The notes under the pieces are model-generated. The model did no database searches and was not told the origin of the DNA. It saw only the letters and a list, made by a program, of their open reading frames with translations. Of a DNA stretch of 44,488 nt, positions 7,001 to 38,137 are shown piece by piece. Both the position numbers and the translations under genes were made by a program. Each line of letters opens with the position of its first letter. The stretch's first letter is position 1. This DNA is from Sphyrna mokarran. Lineage: Eukaryota. Location of the stretch: positions 1 through 44,488 of the forward strand of contig JAGIQG010000273.1 in the NCBI GenBank assembly GCA_024679065.1, written 5' to 3'.

Positions 7001-10000
7001 TGGAAAAAGCTAGCACGAGGGGACACAGTTTTAAATTAAGGGGTGATAGTTATAGGACGGATATCAGAGGTAGGTTCTTTACCCAAAGGGTGGTCGGGAG
7101 TGGAATGCCCTGCCTGCAGCGGTTGTAGATGCGCCAAGTTTGGTGGCGTTTAAGAGGTTAGTTGATAAGTATATGGAAGAGAAGGGAATGGTTTAGTTTG
7201 GAGGGGCATTGCTTTTTATATTGCTCGGCACAACATCGAAGGCCGAAGGGCCTGTTCTGTGCTGTAATGTTCTATGTTCTATGTTCTATGAAATTAACTC
7301 ACCTTCTGACTCCTCAAAACCTGTTCGCCATCTGTAAAGCACAAGTCAGAAGTATGATGGATTACCCCCCACGTGCCTAGTTGGGTGCAACTCCAACAAC
7401 GCGAAAGAAACCTGACATCGTCAAAGGCAAATCAGCCCGCTCGATTGGCAACACATTCACTCCCTCCATCAGCCGATGCTCAGAAGCAGCAGCGCGTACA
7501 CTCACTCAGCAATTCACCAATGATCCTTAGACAGCATCTTTCAAACCTATAACAGTTTCATCCAGAAGGACAAGGACAGCGAATACAAGGGAACACCGCC
7601 ACTGCGTTTCCTTCTACAAGCCACTTAGTATCCCGACTTGGAAACATACTGGCATTCTGTCCCAGTTGCTGGGTCAAAATCCTAGAACTGCATCCCTAAT
7701 GTCATTATGGGTCAACCCACAGCACGTAGACTGCACCCCATCTTTGAAATAGCTATTGAAATACTGTCACTCTATTTAAATTTCCCCCACAGTTTTGCAC
7801 ATTTCTCACTACGAGTCCAAATACAATTCCAGTTGTGAAATGTATTGTAATAGATTCCATTGGCCATGCAGACATTCTCTGAATCACAATACCAAATAGC
7901 ATAAAATAGTCGAAAATGTAATTTATGTGTTGTTTTTCATCTTGATTTTAATGCGATTAGAGTCCAGGTATTAGGAATTTATACGAAAACAGATGCCAAA
8001 CGGAACCTAAAAATTCTGGAGTGTTATTATAGAAAATTGAACTAATACCTCAAGGGAAACTAGAAAAGACAGATTTCGAAAATAGTTAAACATAGAACAT
8101 AGAACATAGAAGAATACAACACAAACAGGCCCTTCAGCCCACGAGTTGCGCTGATCACATCTACCAATCCACAGACCTATCTATAACCCCCTATCCTACT
8201 CTTTTCCATATACTCATCCAGAAGTCTCTTAAAAGACCCCAGTGAGTTTGCCTCAACAGCCTCCGACGGCAGTCGGTTCCATTCACTCACCACCCTCTGA
8301 GTGAAAAACCTACCCCTGACATCTCCTTTGTATTTGCTTCCCTGCACCTTAAATCTGTGTCCTCTCGTAGTGACCATTTCAGCTCGGGGAAATAGTCTCT
8401 GACAGTCCACCCTATCTATTCCTCTCAACATTTCATAAACCTCTATCAGGTCGCCTCTCAACCTCCGTTTCTCCAGTGAGAAGAGTCCCAGCTCCCTCAA
8501 CCTATCTTCATAAGGCCTGCCTCTCAATCCAGGCAGCATCCTTGTAAATCTCCTCTGAACCCTTTCAATAGCCTCTACATCCTTCCTATAATGAGGCGAT
8601 CAGAACTGCGCACAATACTCCAACTGGGGCCTGACAAGAGTCTTATAGAGCTGTATCATTACCTCCTGACTCCTAAATTCTATTCCTCGATTAATGAAGG
8701 CCAGTACACCGTACGCCTACTTGACCACTTCCTCCATCTGCGAGGCCGATTTAAGAGTCCTATGGACCCGGACCCCGACATCCTTCTGCTCTACAACACA
8801 GCTAAGGCTCCTACCCCTTATATTGTATTCCTTCATCCCATTATTCCTGCCAAAATGGGCCACTACACATTTATCTGTATTGAAGTCCAATGCTTCCGTT
8901 TCTCGATTGCAAAGCGCATCCAGTGTTGCACTGACTTCAAATGGGTTGGAAAATCCAATGTCTGAAAAGGACGATGGAAGCAGATTCAATAAAAACTTTC
9001 AGCTGGGAAACGGAGTCTACCTTGAAGGGGAGAAGTGACAGGATTCCAGGTGGCACATTGATTACTATTGCCGCCATATAGTTCCAGAGAACATGGTTTG
9101 ATTCGCGGCTTGATTCACTGTCTGTGCAGGTTGGCACCGTCTCCTGCAGGCGATCTAGTTTCCTCCAACTCTCTGAAGCCATGCTGGTTCGCGGGAATTG
9201 GGCAGACTGAATTTTCTGCAGTGCACTCCAATGGGCGCAGGAGTACGGCGAATAGGCATATTTCACAGCAATTTATTTGTAGCTTTAACGTAAGCATACG
9301 TGTGCCACAAATAAATAATGCAGGTACAATTGGAGATCTCTCTGTGTACGTAACAGACGTCAGTTTCTGAATATTTGGAATATTACTGCAACTGATTACA
9401 AGTTGAATTCAAACCATCATTGTGGAGGTTGACAACTCACCTGAATTGGGGGAGGATACACTTTTCGTCCAATATTTGCCTGGAATCCCCATTTGAACAA
9501 TGCAAGTACAGACACCGCCATTTCTCCAGACTTGCCCCGACACCATGACATGACTTCTGATGCTGTAGGTCCCGTCCTCCCCAGTTATCCCGGGATCACT
9601 CGATCCCTCAGTGACCAAGCCGGAAATATTCCAGAAAACAGCAATCTGCTTGGAAGAAACTCCACTGACCAAACAGACTAAAGGCACATTATCATTCACA
9701 TCCAGATCAGCTGGCGGGACAAATACTTGCACAACCGTCTTGTTGGTGGAACTGTCTGGACAGAAATTGGGACACAGTTAATGATTAATTTACGCACATA
9801 AAAAAAGGATAATGTGCATACTCTGAGTGAATTCACTTTCTCCCTTACCTCCAACCAGGAGTGTGGTTGCATACCGGAACAGTAAAGACCGATCTATGTA
9901 TATATACATACAGTAGTAGGAACCAGAGTCATTCATCTGGACATTGCGAATTTTCAGAATCAACACGTTCCCTGGATCGCCTTTTTCAGAAATAAACTTA

Positions 10001-10770
10001 CAGTCGGGCCCAGTACAGGATGTAGTGGTTATTAGAATCGGGGCTTCACCTAGCCGCTGTTTGTACCAAGCATAGTTGGACACCAAATCCACTTCTTGAG
10101 TGTCATGACAGAATAATTCCACCGTTTGGCCTCTCGCAGCTGTCAATGTGAAAGGGATCTGATACAGAGAGGACTCGGATTCTGTAACTAGAGAGATTAT
10201 TGTGAGATAAGCAATGATTATTGAAATACCAGAAGCTAACTCTAAAAATCAAATCGTCTCGAATGAAAGTTTATTTTATTAATGTCAGAAGTAAGCTTAC
10301 ATTAACACTGCAATGAAGTTACGGCGAAATTCCCCTAACTTCCACACTGCGAGCCTGTCCAGATACACTGAGGGATATTTTTTAGCACCGTCAATGCATC
10401 AACTAGCACCTCTTTTGGACTGTGGGAGCAAACTGGGGCGATCGGAGGAAACCCACGCAGTCTCCACAGTCCACACAAAGCTTTGTGACGCTTTGAGGCA
10501 GCAGTGTTATCCTCTGCATAATCTCCTCATTCATTTAAATCATTGTTTGTCATTTTTTTTCTTAACTTCATGAGTAAAACCAATAAATTAACTTATATGA
10601 TTAGTGCAAATGTCTTCACCCGAACACTGGCTCACTCACGCTTTCAGCTTAGAAAACGCTCATTCGAGTTTATAAAATCGATTCCGCTTGAAATTCCCAC
10701 CCGCCTCTTACTCACAGTGAAACCTCAGTATTTGGAAAATGAGTATCAGAGATAGAGATTCTTCGGCCAT
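947..10770 (-). CDS. Spliced gene (8 coding exons, 1029 nt, 342 aa): non-rearranging antigen-receptor-like IgSF membrane protein, L-VJ-C1-TM-cytoplasmic (PRARP/VJC1-like; resembles 'Ig light chain-like/TCR-like' proteins)
   Basis: Exons 10716-10770, 9849-10187, 9441-9755, 6500-6601, 6372-6402, 6123-6169, 4520-4569 and 947-1036 are joined by GT..AG introns. Phases 1,1,1,1,2,1,0 give one uninterrupted ORF: [31 protein letters not shown]...ELFC...WYKQ...DSGSYYC...[13 protein letters not shown]...LVCLVSG...FW...DGTYS...CTC...[38 protein letters not shown]...[29 protein letters not shown]. Confidence 0.82.
1433..1561 (+). mobile_element. CR1 3'-terminal fragment
   Basis: 3' UTR with GGCCGAAGGG and (TTCTATG)n. 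Confidence 0.8.
1843..2130 (+). mobile_element. HE1-like tRNA-derived SINE
   Basis: A/B-box head (GGGTCGATTCCC), core GTCTGTGTGGAGTTTGCACATTCTCCCC, CR1-like tail GGCCGAATGGCC. Confidence 0.85.
2486..2831 (-). mobile_element. HE1-like SINE
   Basis: Reverse head GGCACAGTGGTTAGTGCTACTGCC and core. Confidence 0.85.
3480..3810. repeat. CA/CT-rich low-complexity microsatellite region
   Basis: Degenerate (CA)n and (CT)n. Confidence 0.75.
3818..4110 (-). mobile_element. HE1-like SINE
   Basis: GGGTTCAATCC B-box and core in reverse. Confidence 0.8.
4520..4569 (-). CDS. Exon 7: cytoplasmic exon ([17 protein letters not shown])
   Basis: Acceptor CTTCGTTACACAG, strong donor CAG|GTAAGC; phase 1->0. Confidence 0.7.
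4612..5520 (+). mobile_element. Old CR1 RT fragment
   Basis: Degenerate [13 protein letters not shown] and [10 protein letters not shown]. Confidence 0.75.
5717..6053 (-). mobile_element. HE1-like SINE
   Basis: Head, core and tail in reverse. Confidence 0.85.
6123..6169 (-). CDS. Exon 6: basic cytoplasmic exon ([16 protein letters not shown])
   Basis: Acceptor TAGTTTTAG, donor G|GTAAGT; phase 2->1. Confidence 0.7.
6372..6402 (-). CDS. Exon 5: cytoplasmic micro-exon ([10 protein letters not shown])
   Basis: Acceptor TCTTGTTTCAG, donor AG|GTGAAT; 31 nt, phase 1->2. Confidence 0.65.
6500..6601 (-). CDS. Exon 4: stalk Cys + transmembrane segment ([34 protein letters not shown])
   Basis: Acceptor TTTTCTCTCTATAG, donor G|GTGAGG; about 21 hydrophobic residues followed by a basic stop-transfer; in frame with the C1 exon. 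Confidence 0.88.
6740..7740 (+). mobile_element. Old non-LTR (L2/CR1-group) RT C-terminal fragment, interrupted by CR1-A
   Basis: Degenerate [23 protein letters not shown] (cf. LYKxxVRSxLEY motif). Confidence 0.6.
6838..7290 (+). mobile_element. Short 5'-truncated CR1 family A copy inserted in an older LINE
   Basis: [10 protein letters not shown].. region plus TTCTATG tail; GAAATT duplicated at both ends. Confidence 0.9.
8090..8890 (-). mobile_element. 5'-truncated CR1 family B copy
   Basis: ORF 8177-8539 ([31 protein letters not shown]), CATAGAA tail. Confidence 0.92.
9272..9277 (-). terminator. Candidate intronic polyadenylation signal after the C1 exon (secreted form)
   Basis: AATAAA on the minus strand about 130 nt after the read-through stop at 9411-9409. 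Confidence 0.35.
9441..9755 (-). CDS. Exon 3: C1-set Ig constant domain
   Basis: Acceptor TTTCTGTCCAG, donor G|GTGAGT; [37 protein letters not shown]. Confidence 0.92.
9849..10187 (-). CDS. Exon 2: V-set Ig domain with germline-joined J-like G strand
   Basis: Acceptor CTCTCTAG, donor G|GTAAGG; motifs Q..., V-x-L-x-C, WYKQ..GEAP, L-x-I-x-N-V-Q-x-x-D-S-G-x-Y-Y-C, F-R-Y-A-T-T-L-L-V (degenerate FGxGTxLxV). Confidence 0.93.
10265..10520 (-). mobile_element. Degenerate HE1-like SINE in the leader-V intron
   Basis: GGACTGTGGGAG..GGAGGAAACCCACGCAG core. Confidence 0.65.
10716..10770 (-). CDS. Exon 1: leader/signal peptide ([18 protein letters not shown], phase 1)
   Basis: ATG at 10770, hydrophobic core, donor T|GTGAGT; phase-1 split leader typical of Ig/TCR genes. 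Confidence 0.8.
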
Positions 10771-17989: not shown

Positions 17990-19445
17990 TCCAGTAAATC
18001 ATCCTCTCTAGTAGAGCTATCAACGTGTTGTTCCAAAGAAACTTCCTGGGCACATTTCACAAATTCTTTCTCGTCCAGACCTCCAGTCCTAACGGAATTC
18101 AGTCTGTATGAGGGAAATTAAAGTCTTCCACTGCAACCGCCCTATTTTTTCTACACCTATCCAGAATTTTCTTACGTATCCGTTCCACAACTTTCCGTGG
18201 GCTGTCGGGAGACCTTGTAGTATAACCCCAGAAAAGTGACTGCGTCGTCCCTGGTTCTGAGCTCTACCCAAAGTGTTTCATTACATGATCCTACCAAATT
18301 GTCCACCCTCTGTACCGCTGCAATATACTCCCTAACCAGTATTACTATTCTCCCACCTCTACTATCTCTTCTTCTATCACGCCTAAAGCACTTGTACACG
18401 GAATATTCGGCTGTCAGTCCTGTCCTTCTTTCAAGTTCCTCTCACTGCAACCACATTGAAGTTTACCACCTGTCTTAAAGCTCCAAGTTCATCTGCCTTG
18501 CGCATTCGCTCCTTAATTTAAGCAGATGCACTACAGAACTCCAGGCTGACTGAGTTTATCCTTCCCGAGATTGCTGTTCCTCTTGGGTAGCCTTGACTTG
18601 GCCCCGTGCTCGCCCCCCCCCCCCCCCCCCCCACCCCCGAGTCTCTTCTCTTGCTGACCTGTTCTGATTCCCACCCCATTGCCACATTAGTTTAAATTTA
18701 CTCGAAACACAATAGTAAACCTCCCAGCCAGGATATCGATGCCTCTCCAGTTCAGGTGTAATCCTTCCTTCTTGTACAGGTCCCATCTTCTCTGAAAGAC
18801 ATTCCAGTTATCCACAAATCTGAAACCCTCCTTCCTGCAGCAGTTCTTTATCCATGTGTTCAGCGGCACTATCTCCCTATTCTCAGCCTCACTAGTATTT
18901 GGCACGGGGAACAATCCAGAGATTTCTACACGTGAAGTCTTGTTTTTTAGCCTTTTACCTAAAGCCCTAAATTGTCCTTGCTGGATTTCCCTATTTTCTG
19001 TCTATGTCATTTGTAGCAAGGTAGACAATGACAATGACCCCTTTTAGGGTGCTCTCTACTCGTTCAGAGACAACCAGGATCGTAGCACCAAGGAAACAGT
19101 CGACCATCCTGGAGTCTCGTTCACGCTCACAGAACCACATGTCTCTGCCTCTAACGACTGAGTCCCCCACTACTATGACTCTCATATTCTCCCCCTATTC
19201 CTTCTGACCCATAGAGTCCAACTCGGCACCAGAGACCTGGTCACTAAGACATACCCCTGGAAGGTCATCCTCCCCTGCAGTATCCAAAAAGGTATACTTA
19301 TTTTGGAGAGAATAATCACAAGGGATTCCTGCACTGATTGCCTCCTCTCCTCCGTTCTCCTGACTGTCACACAGCTAGCTTCATTTTTAGGTGTTACCGC
19401 TTCTCAATAACTACTATCCATCACCCGCTCTTCCTCCTGGATGCT
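17990..19445 (-). mobile_element. Decayed 5' part of an older CR1 (ORF1 esterase + start of ORF2 endonuclease)
   Basis: Frameshifted remnants VGDS, ATND, EGLHLN, RVNLN*, YKCFRRDR. Confidence 0.85.
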
Positions 19446-31916: not shown

Positions 31917-32122
31917 CATAGAACATAGAACATAGAACATTACAGCACAGAACAGGCCCTTCGGCCTTTGATGTTGTGCCGACCAAAATAAAAAGCAATG
32001 CCCCTCCAACTAAAACATTCCCTTCTCTTCCATATACTTATAATTAACCTCTTAAACGCCCCAAACTTGGCGGCATCTCAACTGCGCAGGCAGGGTCATT
32101 TCCACTCCCTAATCACTCTTTG
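31917..32122 (-). mobile_element. 3' end of a 5'-truncated CR1 family A copy (host of the nested full-length insertion)
   Basis: (CATAGAA)n tail and 3' UTR in reverse; the sequence continues seamlessly at 37681. Confidence 0.9.
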
Positions 32123-33630
32123 ATTGTTCCATTGGAGCAGCACGGAGAGGCAGCGATTTGGGAGAGCGAGAAGTTCGATTGATAAGTAGCTTTTTAACTT
32201 TTCTCTTTGTTTAAAACAGCGAGCGGGAGTAGTTTTTGCCGTTTTTATTTTAAACTAACTTGTAACCGGAAGTCGTCACTAGGAGGCTGCCGGTAGTTGT
32301 AGTTTTTAAGCTATATAAGTACTAACCTCTGGGTATCGGCCTCATTGTTCCATTGGAGCAGCACGGAGAGGCAGCGATTTGGGAGAGCGAGAAGTTCGAT
32401 TGATAAGTAGCTTTTTAACTTTTCTCTTTGTTTAAAACAGCGAGCGGGAGTAGTTTTTGCCGTTTTTATTTTAAACTAACTTGTAACCGGAAGTCGTCAC
32501 TAGGAGGCTGCCGGTAGTTGTAGTTTTTAAGCTATATAAGTACTAACCTCTGGGTATCGGCCTCATTGTTCCATTGGAGCAGCACGGAGAGGCAGCGATT
32601 TGGGAGAGCGAGAAGTTCGATTGATAAGTAGCTTTTTAACTTTTCTCTTTGTTTAAAACAGCGAGCGGGAGTAGTTTTTGCCGTTTTTATTTTAAACTAA
32701 CTTGTAACCGGAAGTCGTCACTAGGAGGCTGCCGGTAGTTGTAGTTTTTAAGCTATATAAGTACTAACCTCTGGGTATCGGCCTCATTGTTCCATTGGAG
32801 CAGCACGGAGAGGCAGCGATTTGGGAGAGCGAGAAGTTCGATTGATAAGTAGCTTTTTAACTTTTCTCTTTGTTTAAAACAGCGAGCGGGAGTAGTTTTT
32901 GCCGTTTTTATTTAAACTAACTTGTAACCGGAAGTCGTCACTAGGAGGCTGCCGGTAGTTGTAGTTTTTAAGCTATATAAGTACTAACCTCTGGGTATCG
33001 GCCTCATTGTTCCATTGGAGCAGCACGGAGAGGCAGCGATTTGGGAGAGCGAGAAGTTCGATTGATAAGTAGCTTTTTAACTTTTCTCTTTGTTTAAAAC
33101 AGCGAGCGGGAGTAGTTTTTGCCGTTTTTATTTAAACTAACTTGTAACCGGAAGTCGTCACTAGGAGGCTGCCGGTAGTTGTAGTTTTTAAGCTATATAA
33201 GTACTAACCTCTGGGTATCGGCCTCATTGTTCCATTGGAGCAGCACGGAGAGGCAGCGATTTGGGAGAGCGAGAAGTTCGATTGATAAGTAGCTTTTTAA
33301 CTTTTCTCTTTGTTTAAAACAGCGAGCGGGAGTAGTTTTTGCCGTTTTTATTTTAAACTAACTTGTAACCGGAAGTCGTCACTAGGAGGCTGCCGGTAGT
33401 TGTAGTTTTTAAGCTATATAAGTACTAACCTCTGGGTATCGGCCTCATTGTTCCATTGGAGCAGCACGGAGAGGCAGCGATTTGGGAGAGCGAGAAGTTC
33501 GATTGATAAGTAGCTTTTTAACTTTTCTCTTTGTTTAAAACAGCGAGCGGGAGTAGTTTTTGCCGTTTTTATTTTAAACTAACTTGTAACCGGAAGTCGT
33601 CACTAGGAGGCTGCCGGTAGTTGTAGTTTT
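32123..33630 (+). repeat. Tandem array of about 6.8 x 220-221-bp monomers forming the CR1 5' UTR/promoter
   Basis: Units start at 32123, 32344, 32565, 32786, 33006, 33226 and 33447; essentially identical apart from one T-run length; each complete unit carries ACCGGAAGT, CGTCA and TATATAAG. Confidence 0.95.
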
Positions 33631-33775
33631 TCTCTCTGACTCTATAAATTCTTACAGAGAGGTAACCCGATACTCTACACAGGTAGAGTATCCCACCCTC
33701 CCCCCTCCTCTAACCTAATAATAATAGTGTGTGTGTAGGTTTTTTTTTTCTCTCCTGCAAATTAAAGTAACAGTG

Positions 33776-34699
33776 ATGGCAGTGCAGGTAGTACATTGCA
33801 CCTCCTGCGGTATGTATGAGGTAAGGGACACCAGTGGTGTTCCTGCTGATTATACCTGCAGGAAGTGTGCACATTTGCAGCTCCTTGAGGATCGTGTTAA
33901 GGAGCTGGAGCTGGAATTAGAGGAGCTCAGAGTAATTCGAGAGGTTGAGGAGGATATAGGCAGGAGTAACAAAGAGATTGTAACTCCTATAAGTGATAAT
34001 TGGGTAACTATTAGGAGGAGGGGTAAGAAGCAATCGGGGAGACAATCCCCTGGGGCTGTTCCCCTCCAAAATAAATTTTCTGTCTTGGAGGCTACAGTTG
34101 AGGAAGAATCAACTGGAGCTGACCAAAGGGAGCAGGTCTCTGGGGGTGAGACTGCTGAGAATGCTCAGGTGGGTGGGGGGAATAAGAGATTAGGCCTAGT
34201 TATAGGAGACTCCATAGTTAGAGGGACAGATAGGAGGGTAAATAGTAATAAACAGGACTCAGGGCTGGTGTGTTGCCTCCCAGGGGCTGGGGTCCAGGAT
34301 GTTGCAGATCGGGTTTTTAGGATTCTTAAGGGTGAGGGGAGTCAGCCCCAAGTCATTGTTCATGTGGGGACACATGATGTAGGTAGGACAAGGGAAGGGG
34401 ATATTAAACAGAAATTTATGGAGTTAGGGTGGAAGCTTAGGTCCATAACAGGCAGAGTGGTTATCTCTGGACTCTTGCCTGTGCCAAGGGATAGTTTAGA
34501 GATGAACAGAGAAAGGGATAGTTTGAACTCATGGCTGCGTGGATGGTGCAGGAGGGAGGGGTTCAGGTTCCTTAACAATTGGGACTCATTCTGGGATAGG
34601 TGGGACCTCTTCAAGAGAGATGGTCTACACCTGAACCAGAGGGGGACTAATATCTTGGGGGGAAAATTTGCTAAGGCTATGATGGGGGCTTTAAACTGA
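33776..34699 (+). CDS. CR1 ORF1p: zinc finger, coiled coil and SGNH/GDSL esterase-like domain
   Basis: ATG at 33776; CTSC..CRKC; LLEDRVKELELELEELR; blocks IGDS, LPGA, HVGTHD, DGLHLN; open to TGA at 34699. Confidence 0.92.
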   Translation: MAVQVVHCTSCGMYEVRDTSGVPADYTCRKCAHLQLLEDRVKELELELEELRVIREVEEDIGRSNKEIVTPISDNWVTIRRRGKKQSGRQSPGAVPLQNKFSVLEATVEEESTGADQREQVSGGETAENAQVGGGNKRLGLVIGDSIVRGTDRRVNSNKQDSGLVCCLPGAGVQDVADRVFRILKGEGSQPQVIVHVGTHDVGRTREGDIKQKFMELGWKLRSITGRVVISGLLPVPRDSLEMNRERDSLNSWLRGWCRREGFRFLNNWDSFWDRWDLFKRDGLHLNQRGTNILGGKFAKAMMGALN

Positions 34700-37582
34700 T
34701 TCGGGGGGGGGGTGGGATCCTAAGTAGTTGGGGTGCTGAGAGGGATGAGAGTAAGGGGGTTATAGAAGAGAGTTGTAAAACACAGCGGCGTACGGGTGGG
34801 GTGGGGCATGGTTTGAAATGCGTATACTTTAATGCAAGGAGTATTCGCAATAAGGGGGAGGAACTTGCAGCTTGGACCAGTACCTGGAACTTCGATGTTG
34901 TGGCCATTTCAGAGACTTGGGTAGAGCAGGGACAGGAATGGATGTTGCAGGTTCCGGGGTACAAATGCTTTAGTCGGAGTAGAGAAGGAGGTAGAAGGGG
35001 GGGAGGAGTGGCGTTATTGGTCAAAGACTGTATCACGGTGATAGAAAAGAAGTTTGATGAGGACTTGTCTGTTGAGGTAGTATGGGCTGAGATTAGAAAC
35101 AGGAGAGGAGAGGTCACCCTGTTGGGAGTCTTTTACAGACCTCCTAATAGTTCTAGAGAGGTTGAGGAAAGGATTGCGAAGTCAATTCTGATTAGGAGTG
35201 AAAGTAGTAGGGTAATTGTGATGGGGGACTTTAACTTTGCTAATATTGATTGGAATAGCTATAGCTCTAGCTCGTTAGAGGGGTCAGTTTTCGTACAGAG
35301 TGTGCAGGAAGGTTTTTTGACTCAGTATGTAGATAGGCCAACTAGAGGTGAGGCTACATTGGATTTGGTGCTGGGCAATGAGCCAGACCAGGTGTTAGGC
35401 TTGGAAGTTAGTGAACATTTTGGTGATAGTGACCACAATTCGGTTACGTTCACCTTAGTGATGGACAGGGATAGGCATGAAGCTGGGGGCTGTAGTTATA
35501 GCTGGGGGAAGGGTAATTATGAGGCCATCAGGAGAGAATTAGGGTGCGTAGATTGGACTAGGGAACTACAGGGACTGGGAACATCTGGAATGTGGTGCTT
35601 ATTCAAGGAGCAGCTGCTGAGAGTCCTTGATAAGTATGTCCCTGTCAGGCAGGGAGGAAATGGTACGAGTAAGAGAGCCTTGGTGTACGAAAAGAGTTGA
35701 TTTGCTGGTTAAGAAGAAAAAGGAGGCTTATGTCAGGATGAGGCTTGAAGGCTCAGGTAGTGCAATGGATAGCTATAGATTAGCTAGGAAGGAGGTAAAA
35801 AGTGAATTGAGGAGAGCTAAGAGGGGACACGAGAAGATGTTGGCTGATAGGATTAAGGAGAATCCTAAAGCTTTCTTTCGATATGTTAAGAATAGAAGAT
35901 TGGTTAGGGCAAGATTAGGGCCAGTCATAGATAGCAGTGGGAAGTTGTGCGTGGAGCCTGAAGAGATTGGCGAGGCACTGAATAAATATTTCTCTTCGGT
36001 ATTCACGCAGAGTGCTGGAAATGTAGCTGTGGAGAGCACTGAGGTACAGGGTTGCAAATTGGGGAGTATTGTAGTAGATAGGGAGGATGTGTTAGAAATT
36101 CTCGAGGGTTTGAAGTTGGATAAGTCCCCTGGGCCGGACGGGATTTACCCTAGGATTCTCTGGGAGGCAAGAGAGGAGATTGCAGAGCCTCTGGCTCTGA
36201 TCTTCAGGTCCTCGTTGGTTACGGGTGTGGTTCCGGAGGACTGGAGGATGGCGAATGTGGTCCCATTGTTTAAGAAGGGGAAGAGAGACCTTCCTGGGAA
36301 TTATAGGCCAGTGAGTCTTACTTCTGTTGTGGGCAAGGTATTGGAGAGAATTATTAGGGATAGGATTTATAGTTATTTAGAGAGAAATGAATTGATTGGG
36401 GATAGTCAGCATGGTTTCGTGAAGGGTAGGTCATGCCTTACTAACCTCATTGAGTTTTTTGAGAAAGTGACCAGAGAGGTGGATGGGGGTAAGGCGGTTG
36501 ATGTAGTATATATGGACTTTAGTAAGGCTTTTGATAAGGTGGCCCATGGAAGACTTCTACAGAAAATGCAGATGTGTGGAATAGAGGGTGATTTAGCTAA
36601 TTGGATTAGAAATTGGCTGGCAGATAGAAGACAGAGGGTGGTGGTTGATGGGAGATATTCATCGTGGAGTTCGGTGACGAGTGGTGTGCCTCAGGGGTCT
36701 GTTTTGGGGCCCCTGCTGTTTGTAATTTTTATAAATGATCTGGATGAGGGTATTGAGGGATGGATCAGTAAATTTGCAGATGATACTAAAGTTGGTGGAG
36801 TGGTAGATAGTGAAGAGGGGTGTTTTAGTTTACAGAGTGACTTGGACAAGTTGCAGAGCTGGGCCGAGAGGTGGCAAATGGAGTTTAATGTGGAAAAGTG
36901 TGAGGTAATGCACTTTGGCAGGAACAATAAATGTGTAGAGTATAGGGCTAATGGTAGGGCTCTTAATAGTGTTGAGGAACAGAAGGATCTTGGTGTATGT
37001 GTCAATAGATCCCTGAAAGTAGGCAGTCAAGTGGATAAAGTTGTTAAGAAGGCATATGGAGTCTTAGCTTTTATTGGTAGGGGGATTGAATTTAGGAGCC
37101 GCAGCATCATGTTGCAACTGTACAAAACTCTAGTGCGGCCGCACTTGGAGTATTGTGTGCAGTTCTGGTGCCCACATTATAAGAAAGATGTGGAGGCATT
37201 GGAGAGGGTACAGAGGAGGTTTACCAGGATGTTGCCTGGTATGGAGGGCAGGTCTTATGAAGAGAGGTTGAAGGATTTGAGGTTGTTTTCGTTAGAAAGG
37301 AGGCGGCTAAGAGGGGATCTTATTGAAACATATAAGATGATTAGAGGTTTAGATAGGGTGGACAGTGATAGCCTTTTTCCTAGGATGGAGAAAGCTAGCA
37401 CGAGGGGACACAGCTTTAAATTAAGGGGTATGAGTTATAGGACGGATATCAGAGGTAGGTTCTTTACTCAAAGAGTGATTAGGGAGTGGAATGCCCTGCC
37501 TGCAGCTGTTGTAGATGCGCCAAGTTTGGTGGCGTTTAAGAGGTTAGTTGATAAGTATATGGATAGGAAGGGAATGGTTTAG
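34690..37582 (+). CDS. CR1 ORF2p: APE endonuclease + reverse transcriptase (one +1 frameshift near 35665)
   Basis: EN motifs NARS, ISETW, GGGV, GDFN, LDLV, SDH (ORF 34801-35700); RT motifs [34 protein letters not shown] (ORF 35627-37582); removing 1 nt near 35665 fuses the two ORFs. Confidence 0.92.
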
Positions 37583-37680
37583 TTAGGAGGGGCATTGCTT
37601 TTTATTTTGGTCGGCACAACATCGAAGGCCGAAGGGCCTGTTCTGTGCTGTATTGTTCTATGTTTCTATGTTCTATGTTC

Positions 37681-38137
37681 TTTGAGTAAAGAACCTACCT
37701 CTGATATCCGTCCTATAACTCATACCCCTTAATTTAAAGCTGTGTCCCCTCGTGCTAGCTTTCTCCATCCTAGGAAAAAGGCTATCACTGTCCACCCTAT
37801 CTAAACCTCTAATCATCTTATATGCTTCAATAAGATCCCCTCTTAGCCGCCTCCTTTCTAACGAAAACAACCTCAAATCCTTCAACCTCTCTTCATAGGA
37901 CCTGCCCTCCATACCAGGCAACCTCCTGGTAAACCTCCTCTGTACCCTCTCCAATGCCTCCACATCTTTCTTATAATGTGGCGACCAGAACTGCACACAA
38001 TACTCCAAGTGCGGCCGCACTAGAGTTTTGTAAAGCTGCAACATGATGCTGCGGCTCCTAAATTCAATCCCCCTACCAATAAAAGCTAAGACTCCATATG
38101 CCTTCTTAACAACTTTATCCACTTGACTGCCTACTTT
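37681..38137 (-). mobile_element. Remainder of the host CR1 family A copy (RT C-terminal region)
   Basis: ORF 37673-38122 nearly identical to the ORF2 C-terminus. Confidence 0.92.

Follow-up and report, generated by a model that had tools for sequence, protein, structure and literature searches.

The two open reading frames (ORFs) of a CR1 long interspersed nuclear element (LINE) from the shark Sphyrna mokarran meet at a slippery heptamer of the viral type, U UUA AAC, which directly precedes the ORF1 stop codon. This junction feature is real and conserved, and in our view it likely serves as a -1 frameshift site in one of the major families of vertebrate retrotransposons. The element lies on the + strand of contig JAGIQG010000273.1 (GenBank assembly GCA_024679065.1), of which positions 1 to 44,488, the whole stretch analyzed, are termed the window here. 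The translation of ORF2 in LINEs is a long-standing question, settled in only a few elements (L1, SART1). The initial annotation of the window had proposed a -1 frameshift that joins ORF1 to ORF2, and such a fusion is probable in our judgment. Since the phased heptamer is fixed at synonymous positions and, in one related element, swapped for another slippery heptamer, G GGA AAC, frameshifting would be the simplest account; the restricted termini of the ORF1 proteins lend further support. The junction comprises the following features.

33776 to 34699, + strand: ORF1, 307 amino acids, ending ...GALN and a stop (reading frame, domain search and alignment)
34690 to 34696, + strand: slippery heptamer U UUA AAC in ORF1 phase, followed by the stop TGA at 34697-34699 (sequence and codon phase)
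34703 to 34718, + strand: G-rich segment, a candidate stimulator, G10-T-GGG-AT in this copy, coding for G-x-G in the -1 frame
34675 to 35700, + strand: 5' part of ORF2 in the -1 frame, with a linker, an apurinic/apyrimidinic (AP) endonuclease from 34813 and the first ATG at 34942

As the initial annotation had described, the end of ORF1 reads GCT TTA AAC TGA, with TTTAAAC in X XXY YYZ phase, and the -1 frame is open from 34675. It had also claimed that ORF2 has no ATG until after the endonuclease motifs. Indeed, LKCVYFNARS begins at 34813, NARS at 34831 and ISETW at 34906, all ahead of the first ATG. The absence of an AUG in itself proves little about ORF2 translation, because the start of L1 ORF2 is thought to be AUG-independent (PMC5009743, which, like the other papers below, is cited for part of its text). 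Under the codon use of the element, where TTA accounts for 22 of 112 Leu codons and AAC for 11 of 43 Asn codons, the probability of the spelling U UUA AAC for x-Leu-Asn is about 0.016, and TTA AAC is used in none of the five other Leu-Asn pairs. The heptamer is thus more than a chance spelling. Canonical heptamers stand in phase at two of 1263 codon positions, both within the last 12 codons of ORF1. The second one, G GGA AAA at 34660-34666, lies 30 nt upstream of the main site; it was set aside as a shift site because the window copy has a -1 frame stop at 34672, a position that varies within the family.

We found the phased heptamer widely among vertebrate CR1 consensus rows, a comparison that the initial annotation had suggested, and saw none of six synonymous spellings at an ORF1 end among the 24 of 73 places examined. 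The comparison covered the first 400 letters of each consensus row in Supplementary Table 2 of PMC13343379. The search for the heptamer followed by a stop, which is conditioned on the heptamer and in which ORF1 ends were judged by eye, gave 23 matches: 18 at an ORF1 end, two in 5' untranslated regions (UTRs) of dogfish CR1 and three in L2 or Rex1. The 18 rows are from halosaur, alligator (two), bowfin, bullfrog, chimaera, crocodile (three), stingray, coelacanth, bearded dragon, sawfish, catshark (two) and dogfish (three), with all three stop codons represented after the heptamer. In the parts of the table that were examined whole, the junction was visible in 4 of 22 catshark rows and in 1 of 14 stingray CR1 rows; all five carry the heptamer, one of them clipped at its start and one without its stop. 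Six synonymous spellings were found at 73 places, and at none of the 24 places examined did one of them stand at an ORF1 end. Two gapped rows, HypSab-13 and AquChr-5, have the site with one letter missing.

The window itself contains another instance.

18690 to 18696, - strand: heptamer and TAA of a second CR1, decayed, 5'-truncated and of another subfamily, with an ORF1 remnant at 19323-18690

The ORF1 of this second copy is 36-50% identical to that of the main element and ends TTA AAC TAA at 18696-18687. In the metagenome locus L001, whose ORF1 is 30% identical, the end reads CAG GGA AAC TAG, so that G GGA AAC takes the place of U UUA AAC; the -1 frame is open from the junction through to the endonuclease, and the endonuclease ORF matches ORF2 by tblastn. 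L001 is the only one of 12 metagenome loci with such a match. The other 11 were excluded from the counts: one is cut off ahead of the stop, and ten are other or decayed esterase-bearing elements with neither the heptamer nor an endonuclease match. Viral contigs contained no relative of ORF1 or ORF2 and no UTR motif, and plasmids gave no match. Two weak bacterial SGNH matches in GTDB were not used.

The ORF1 proteins point to the same constraint. Among near homologues, 43 of 67 end in LN and 3 in GN, and turtle and lizard proteins mostly end in ALN. With a profile seeded with LN and GN endings, we took the best 150 representatives at 50% identity and kept the 116 with the SGNH motif DGLH within 60 residues of the end, dropping 34. 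LN ends 47 of the 116, GN 25 and KN 3, together 75, compared with 254 of 31,768 internal dipeptides (0.8%). These are the dipeptides that the strongest shifty heptamers can encode (PMC5009743). The tail from DGLH to the end varies between 24 and 39 residues, and hence the dipeptide follows the stop rather than the fold. Of the remaining 41 proteins, 11 carry one of these dipeptides at the usual place but continue beyond it, and several others have FF, FL or GF there.

A few further observations concern these proteins. P0168, P0177, P0201, P0206, P0207, P0223, P0240 and P0248 have Lys-Asn at the usual position and 2-12 further residues, a pattern compatible with A AAA AAC and an extended overlap; another group, ending in FFR, GFR or GFC, would fit U-rich heptamers. 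P0010 is a shark-type CR1 ORF1 deposited as Pseudomonas aeruginosa, a naming that probably reflects host contamination of an assembly. A gene model from Hypanus that joins ORF1 to the endonuclease, one of two matches in a search for longer proteins, was not taken as evidence of a natural fusion.

The same data bear on the notion that the terminal residues or the DNA word matter for reasons other than translation, i.e., that the ORF1 protein needs a C-terminal Leu/Gly-Asn for folding or binding, or that TTTAAAC is a DNA-level motif, with ORF2 expressed by internal initiation or from a spliced or shorter RNA. A terminal Asn is common to 81 of the 116 proteins, and TTTAAAC with a stop recurs seven times in the 5' repeats of the element and in the two dogfish 5'UTR rows. 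However, selection on the protein could not fix TTA and AAC, given the codon usage above, and the end dipeptide tracks the stop. A DNA motif would need neither codon phase nor a switch to GGGAAAC, and the linker is selected in the -1 frame from the junction onward. We regard this explanation as highly improbable.

Variation within the family was assessed by aligning contigs to 34652-34745 at 80% likeness and listing differences of at least 1%. Across the 399 contigs of run X1, the 63 of X3 and the single one of X5, no such difference was found at 34690-34700, with contigs being prone to lose rare variants, whereas the flanking positions 34682, 34683, 34686, 34689, 34701, 34703 and 34705 vary. 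Run X11 spans only part of the heptamer, and X19 (0 reads) and X7 (1 contig, off the site) provide no test. In the linker (34700-34812), 10 of 17 listed variants fall on synonymous third positions of the -1 frame (p=0.027), as against 4 and 3 for the other frames, and the 42 listed variants include none that would introduce an AUG or a stop into the -1 frame. This synonymous bias together with the absence of such variants suggests that ORF2 translation probably begins at the junction rather than just upstream of the endonuclease.

Selection on the -1 frame of the linker fits termination-reinitiation equally well. In that scenario, ribosomes would stop at the end of ORF1 and restart in the -1 frame, either at a codon overlapping the stop (AUG, or AUU or GUG elsewhere) as in SART1 or independently of AUG as is thought for L1, and would produce a separate ORF2 protein. 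A true UAAUG is present at the overlap in some shark families (ScyCan_CR1-1a, SquAca_CR1-17a and SquAca_CR1-6c, 3 of the 18 rows) and in the second CR1 copy of the window, whose stop codon shares letters with a -1 frame ATG. In SART1, influenza B and CHV1, UAAUG is the signal that drives coupled translation (PMC2699510). In several relatives, the linker also contains a Met, whose place differs among them (L001, P0038, P0061, P0088 and P0251). Nevertheless, 12 of the 18 rows have nothing start-like at the overlap, neither AUG nor any codon one base away from it, the others having AUG (three), GUG (one), AUU (one) and AGG (one), and a change of the AUG abolishes coupling in CHV1 (PMC2699510). 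The main element has UGAUU, with no AUG over the stop. Reinitiation at this AUU, the alternative offered by the initial annotation, is weak, with the codon in 1 of the 18 rows and altered in part of run X3 (154 of a depth of 1308). Reinitiation furthermore offers no reason for the heptamer ahead of the stop to be fixed or to be exchanged for another slippery one. Overall, we consider it rather unlikely.

The UAAUG families could also have come to use both routes, if frameshifting were ancestral and some shark families had added, or switched to, UAAUG reinitiation. These families keep the full heptamer, and TAG-TG differs from TAA-TG by only one transition (CalMil_CR1-1b, ScyCan_CR1-14). On the other hand, the AUG is possibly a chance product of TAA before a conserved TG. 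We treat a combination of both routes as unlikely.

According to the frameshift model, which we prefer, a fraction of ribosomes would slip back one base at U UUA AAC and continue into ORF2. The Leu- and Asn-tRNAs would slip from UUA AAC to UUU AAA, creating the junction peptide ...GALN-LI... in the fusion. Most ribosomes would stop at UGA and release the ORF1 protein, resulting in a high ratio of ORF1 to ORF2 protein as in gag-pol. The adjacent stop and the G-rich segment 6-20 nt downstream would probably promote slippage; the partner of this segment might be a distant RNA, a protein or nothing.

The G10-T-GGG run that the initial annotation had noted 6 nt past the heptamer is present at 34703, although it does not hold as a family trait. 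In run X1, which may be the source sample, A stands at 34703 in 71% and at 34705 in 82% of the summed contig depth, which is not copy number, so that most of the family has a run of G7 and G10 is a trait of the window copy. By eye, 13 of the 18 rows have four or more consecutive G past the stop, for the most part in GGG-x-GGG codons that encode the G-x-G motif in the -1 frame. The G-quadruplex suggested as a stimulator was rejected for the family as a whole because its predicted gain is copy-specific, at 16 kcal/mol in the window copy and 2 with the majority letters of the family; 7 of 83 windows of the G-rich element also fold as quadruplexes. The local fold downstream of the site is no more stable than shuffled sequences (z -0.13 to -0.75), and that of L001 is likewise unremarkable (z +0.6 to +0.7). 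No local pseudoknot or stem-loop stands out, no dedicated pseudoknot search having been made, and Rfam matched nothing near the site, with one chance match elsewhere (E 2.6). Pairing of the G-rich segment with the 3' end of the element was not among the 12 best windows, and no strong duplex occurs there. For L001 (769-790 and about 1675-1695), predicted pairing (-22.9 kcal/mol) links the 5' part of ORF1 to a stretch 30-50 nt past the heptamer.

The unremarkable local folds are among several points that weigh against a frameshift, as are the UAAUG overlaps in the three shark rows and the second copy and the linker Met residues described above. The evidence on the junction consists of DNA and protein sequences. 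The row search started from the heptamer, with ends judged by eye, and the control on synonymous spellings covers only 24 of the 73 places. As to the proteins, 41 of the 116 lack an LN, GN, KN or PN end, the profile was seeded with the endings that it recovered, the codons are known for one GN protein only, and the protein library carries no names. Finally, the recurrence of TTTAAAC and a stop in the 5' repeats and in two dogfish 5'UTR rows indicates that the word can have other causes.

A -1 frameshift would not be new to LINEs. The initial annotation had considered fusion-type expression typical of long terminal repeat (LTR) elements, which overlooks TRE5-A and TRE3-A of Dictyostelium, for whose ORF2 a -1 frameshift is said to be required (PMC5911963). 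Like CR1, these are APE-type LINEs, although they belong to another clade and have another ORF1. The heptamer is identical to U_UUA_AAC of the coronavirus IBV, and the fusion of a structural protein to a polymerase would follow the logic of retroviral gag-pol (PMC5009743). In contrast to IBV and gag-pol, the 0-frame stop of CR1 abuts the heptamer and no local structure stands out, and, unlike in the gag-pol case, the domain search revealed no protease domain in ORF2 that would cut the fusion. The G-rich segment begins at the usual 6-9 nt spacer (PMC1616946). SART1, influenza B and CHV1 share the frame relation of the two ORFs, and some shark CR1 families have their UAAUG (PMC2699510); the family in the window differs from the SART1 type in its UGAUU, and in CR1 it is the upstream heptamer, not the start codon, that is conserved.

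We found no paper on CR1 frameshifting in a search that did not cover the older chicken and turtle CR1 papers, which may remark on the overlap. In the parts covered, the review of frameshifting in PMC5009743 does not mention CR1, the elements named being limited to HeT-A, TART and L1, and the chicken report PMC11835228 mentions frameshifting for retroviruses only. Neither PMC4120745 nor PMC13343379 makes a statement on ORF2 translation in the parts covered, and "frameshift" and "overlap" have no matches in that of PMC4120745.

A possible partner for the G-rich segment lies in the 5'UTR, about 1 kb upstream.

33669 to 33692, + strand: 10-bp hairpin of the 5'UTR (predicted fold; related hairpins seen by eye in consensus rows)
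33690 to 33715, + strand: conserved pyrimidine tract of the 5'UTR

Positions 33690-33705 of the tract could form 16 bp, one of them a G-U pair, with 34703-34718, and the duplex would start at the usual 6-9 nt spacer (PMC1616946). The two segments are mutual best partners, at -39.7 versus -23.7 kcal/mol for the next site and, in the reverse scan, -39.2 versus -32.1. With the letters of the copy and the majority letters alike, the duplex is stronger than those of all 300 dinucleotide-shuffled versions of the unique UTR; when only the tract is shuffled, the energy of the duplex is reached in 1 of 1000 cases for the copy and in 27 of 1000 for the majority letters. In the predicted fold of 33625-34800, the helix has a probability of at least 0.99. 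By eye, the tract was recognized together with the adjoining hairpin, both of whose arms carry changes, in 8 rows of whale shark, catshark and dogfish CR1, and the 3' part of the tract is present in 8 shark CR1 rows.

Other observations argue against such a duplex. The complementarity was spotted by eye before it was tested, and a second G-rich piece near 34992-35010 competes in co-folding, with -30.4 and -28.1 against -33.3 (copy) and -28.1 (majority letters). The tract is absent from 9 of 9 stingray UTR rows, including the sibling of a row that has the G motif, and present in only 3 of 22 catshark rows, in two of which it has a plausible local partner. The sibling rows HypSab-6a/6b, CalMil-1a/1b and SquAca-6a/6c include G-rich junctions without the UTR tract, and junctions with a GAT codon would mismatch the conserved core. 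That the -1 shift in this shark CR1 branch would be switched by pairing of the 5'UTR element (33669-33715) with the G-rich segment is thus a doubtful proposal. Duplex-induced frameshifting in PMC1616946 was tested mainly for +1 shifts. The long-distance stimulator of barley yellow dwarf virus has its partner near the 3' end (PMC5009743), whereas in CR1 the partner would lie upstream, in the 5'UTR, as a mirror image. This predicted pairing is a new lead, with the tract missing in many relatives. If it were true, ORF2 output would be tied to traffic on the 5'UTR, where scanning ribosomes would melt the duplex.

The 5'UTR element comprises CCC, the 10-bp hairpin, a CCCACCC core and then CCTCCTCTAACC, and has no match in Rfam; its hairpin changes in the whale shark, catshark and dogfish families are compensatory. 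It could be an independent structured RNA, with a job of its own.

The remainder of the element has the following features.

32123 to 33631, + strand: tandem array at the 5' end, with 6.8 copies of a 221-bp unit at 99% likeness (repeat analysis)
35621 to 37582, + strand: 3' part of ORF2 with the reverse transcriptase
37583 to 37681, + strand: 3'UTR and short tail repeats of the TTCTATG type (sequence)

The element is thus a nearly full-length LINE, with the tandem array followed by a short unique 5'UTR, ORF1, ORF2, and the 3'UTR and tail. The N-terminus of ORF1 aligns as a Cys-pair zinc finger and a leucine-zipper-like part, followed by an SGNH/GDSL esterase domain (Lipase_GDSL_2, E 1.3e-9, above the cut-off in the domain search). 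ORF2 contains Exo_endo_phos (E 1.7e-20) and RVT_1 (E 2.4e-37) domains and is split by a one-base frame break near 35.66 kb, which makes the window copy broken and non-autonomous. A short tandem-repeat tail is a defining trait of CR1, and the tail at about 37650-37681 consists of short tandem repeats and not of poly(A); poly(A) is unique to Zenon according to PMC13343379. The nearest named homologues of ORF1 are from sharks and rays, with turtle homologues as well. From these homologues, the matching junctions in rows named CR1 and the architecture, the element is assigned as an esterase-type vertebrate CR1 LINE. The esterase-type CR1 of the literature (ORF1 type IVB, zinc finger/leucine zipper and esterase; PMC4120745, PMC13343379) shares the Cys pairs and SGNH esterase, the AP endonuclease and reverse transcriptase, the 5' tandem subunits and the short tail repeats. 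In PMC13343379, 5' subunits are mentioned for elements without ORF1; the window element, by contrast, has one.

Each of the 7 units in the 5' array holds TTTAAAC followed by TAA. Inverted 3' fragments of the same CR1 family adjoin both ends of the element on the - strand (about 31918-32120 and 37673-38137), and the downstream fragment forms a near-perfect inverted repeat with the 3' end of the element. Elsewhere in the window, a V-set and a C1-set immunoglobulin frame are separated by about 10 bases on the - strand (9409-10248), an unusually close V-C arrangement, which suggests an antigen-receptor-like or NITR-like gene.

In most vertebrate species, the dominant retrotransposons belong to the CR1 group (PMC13343379). 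If the frameshift is true, it would show by what means ORF2 is translated in this large family, namely through a predicted gag-pol-like ORF1-ORF2 fusion without a protease to cut it, and would explain CR1 gene models that read through "...GFKL...". It would also mean that the junction has to be retained in any test of CR1 activity, and that counts of "intact ORF2" based on AUG are possibly wrong. The conserved slippery site of viral type makes the question of ORF2 translation in CR1 testable.

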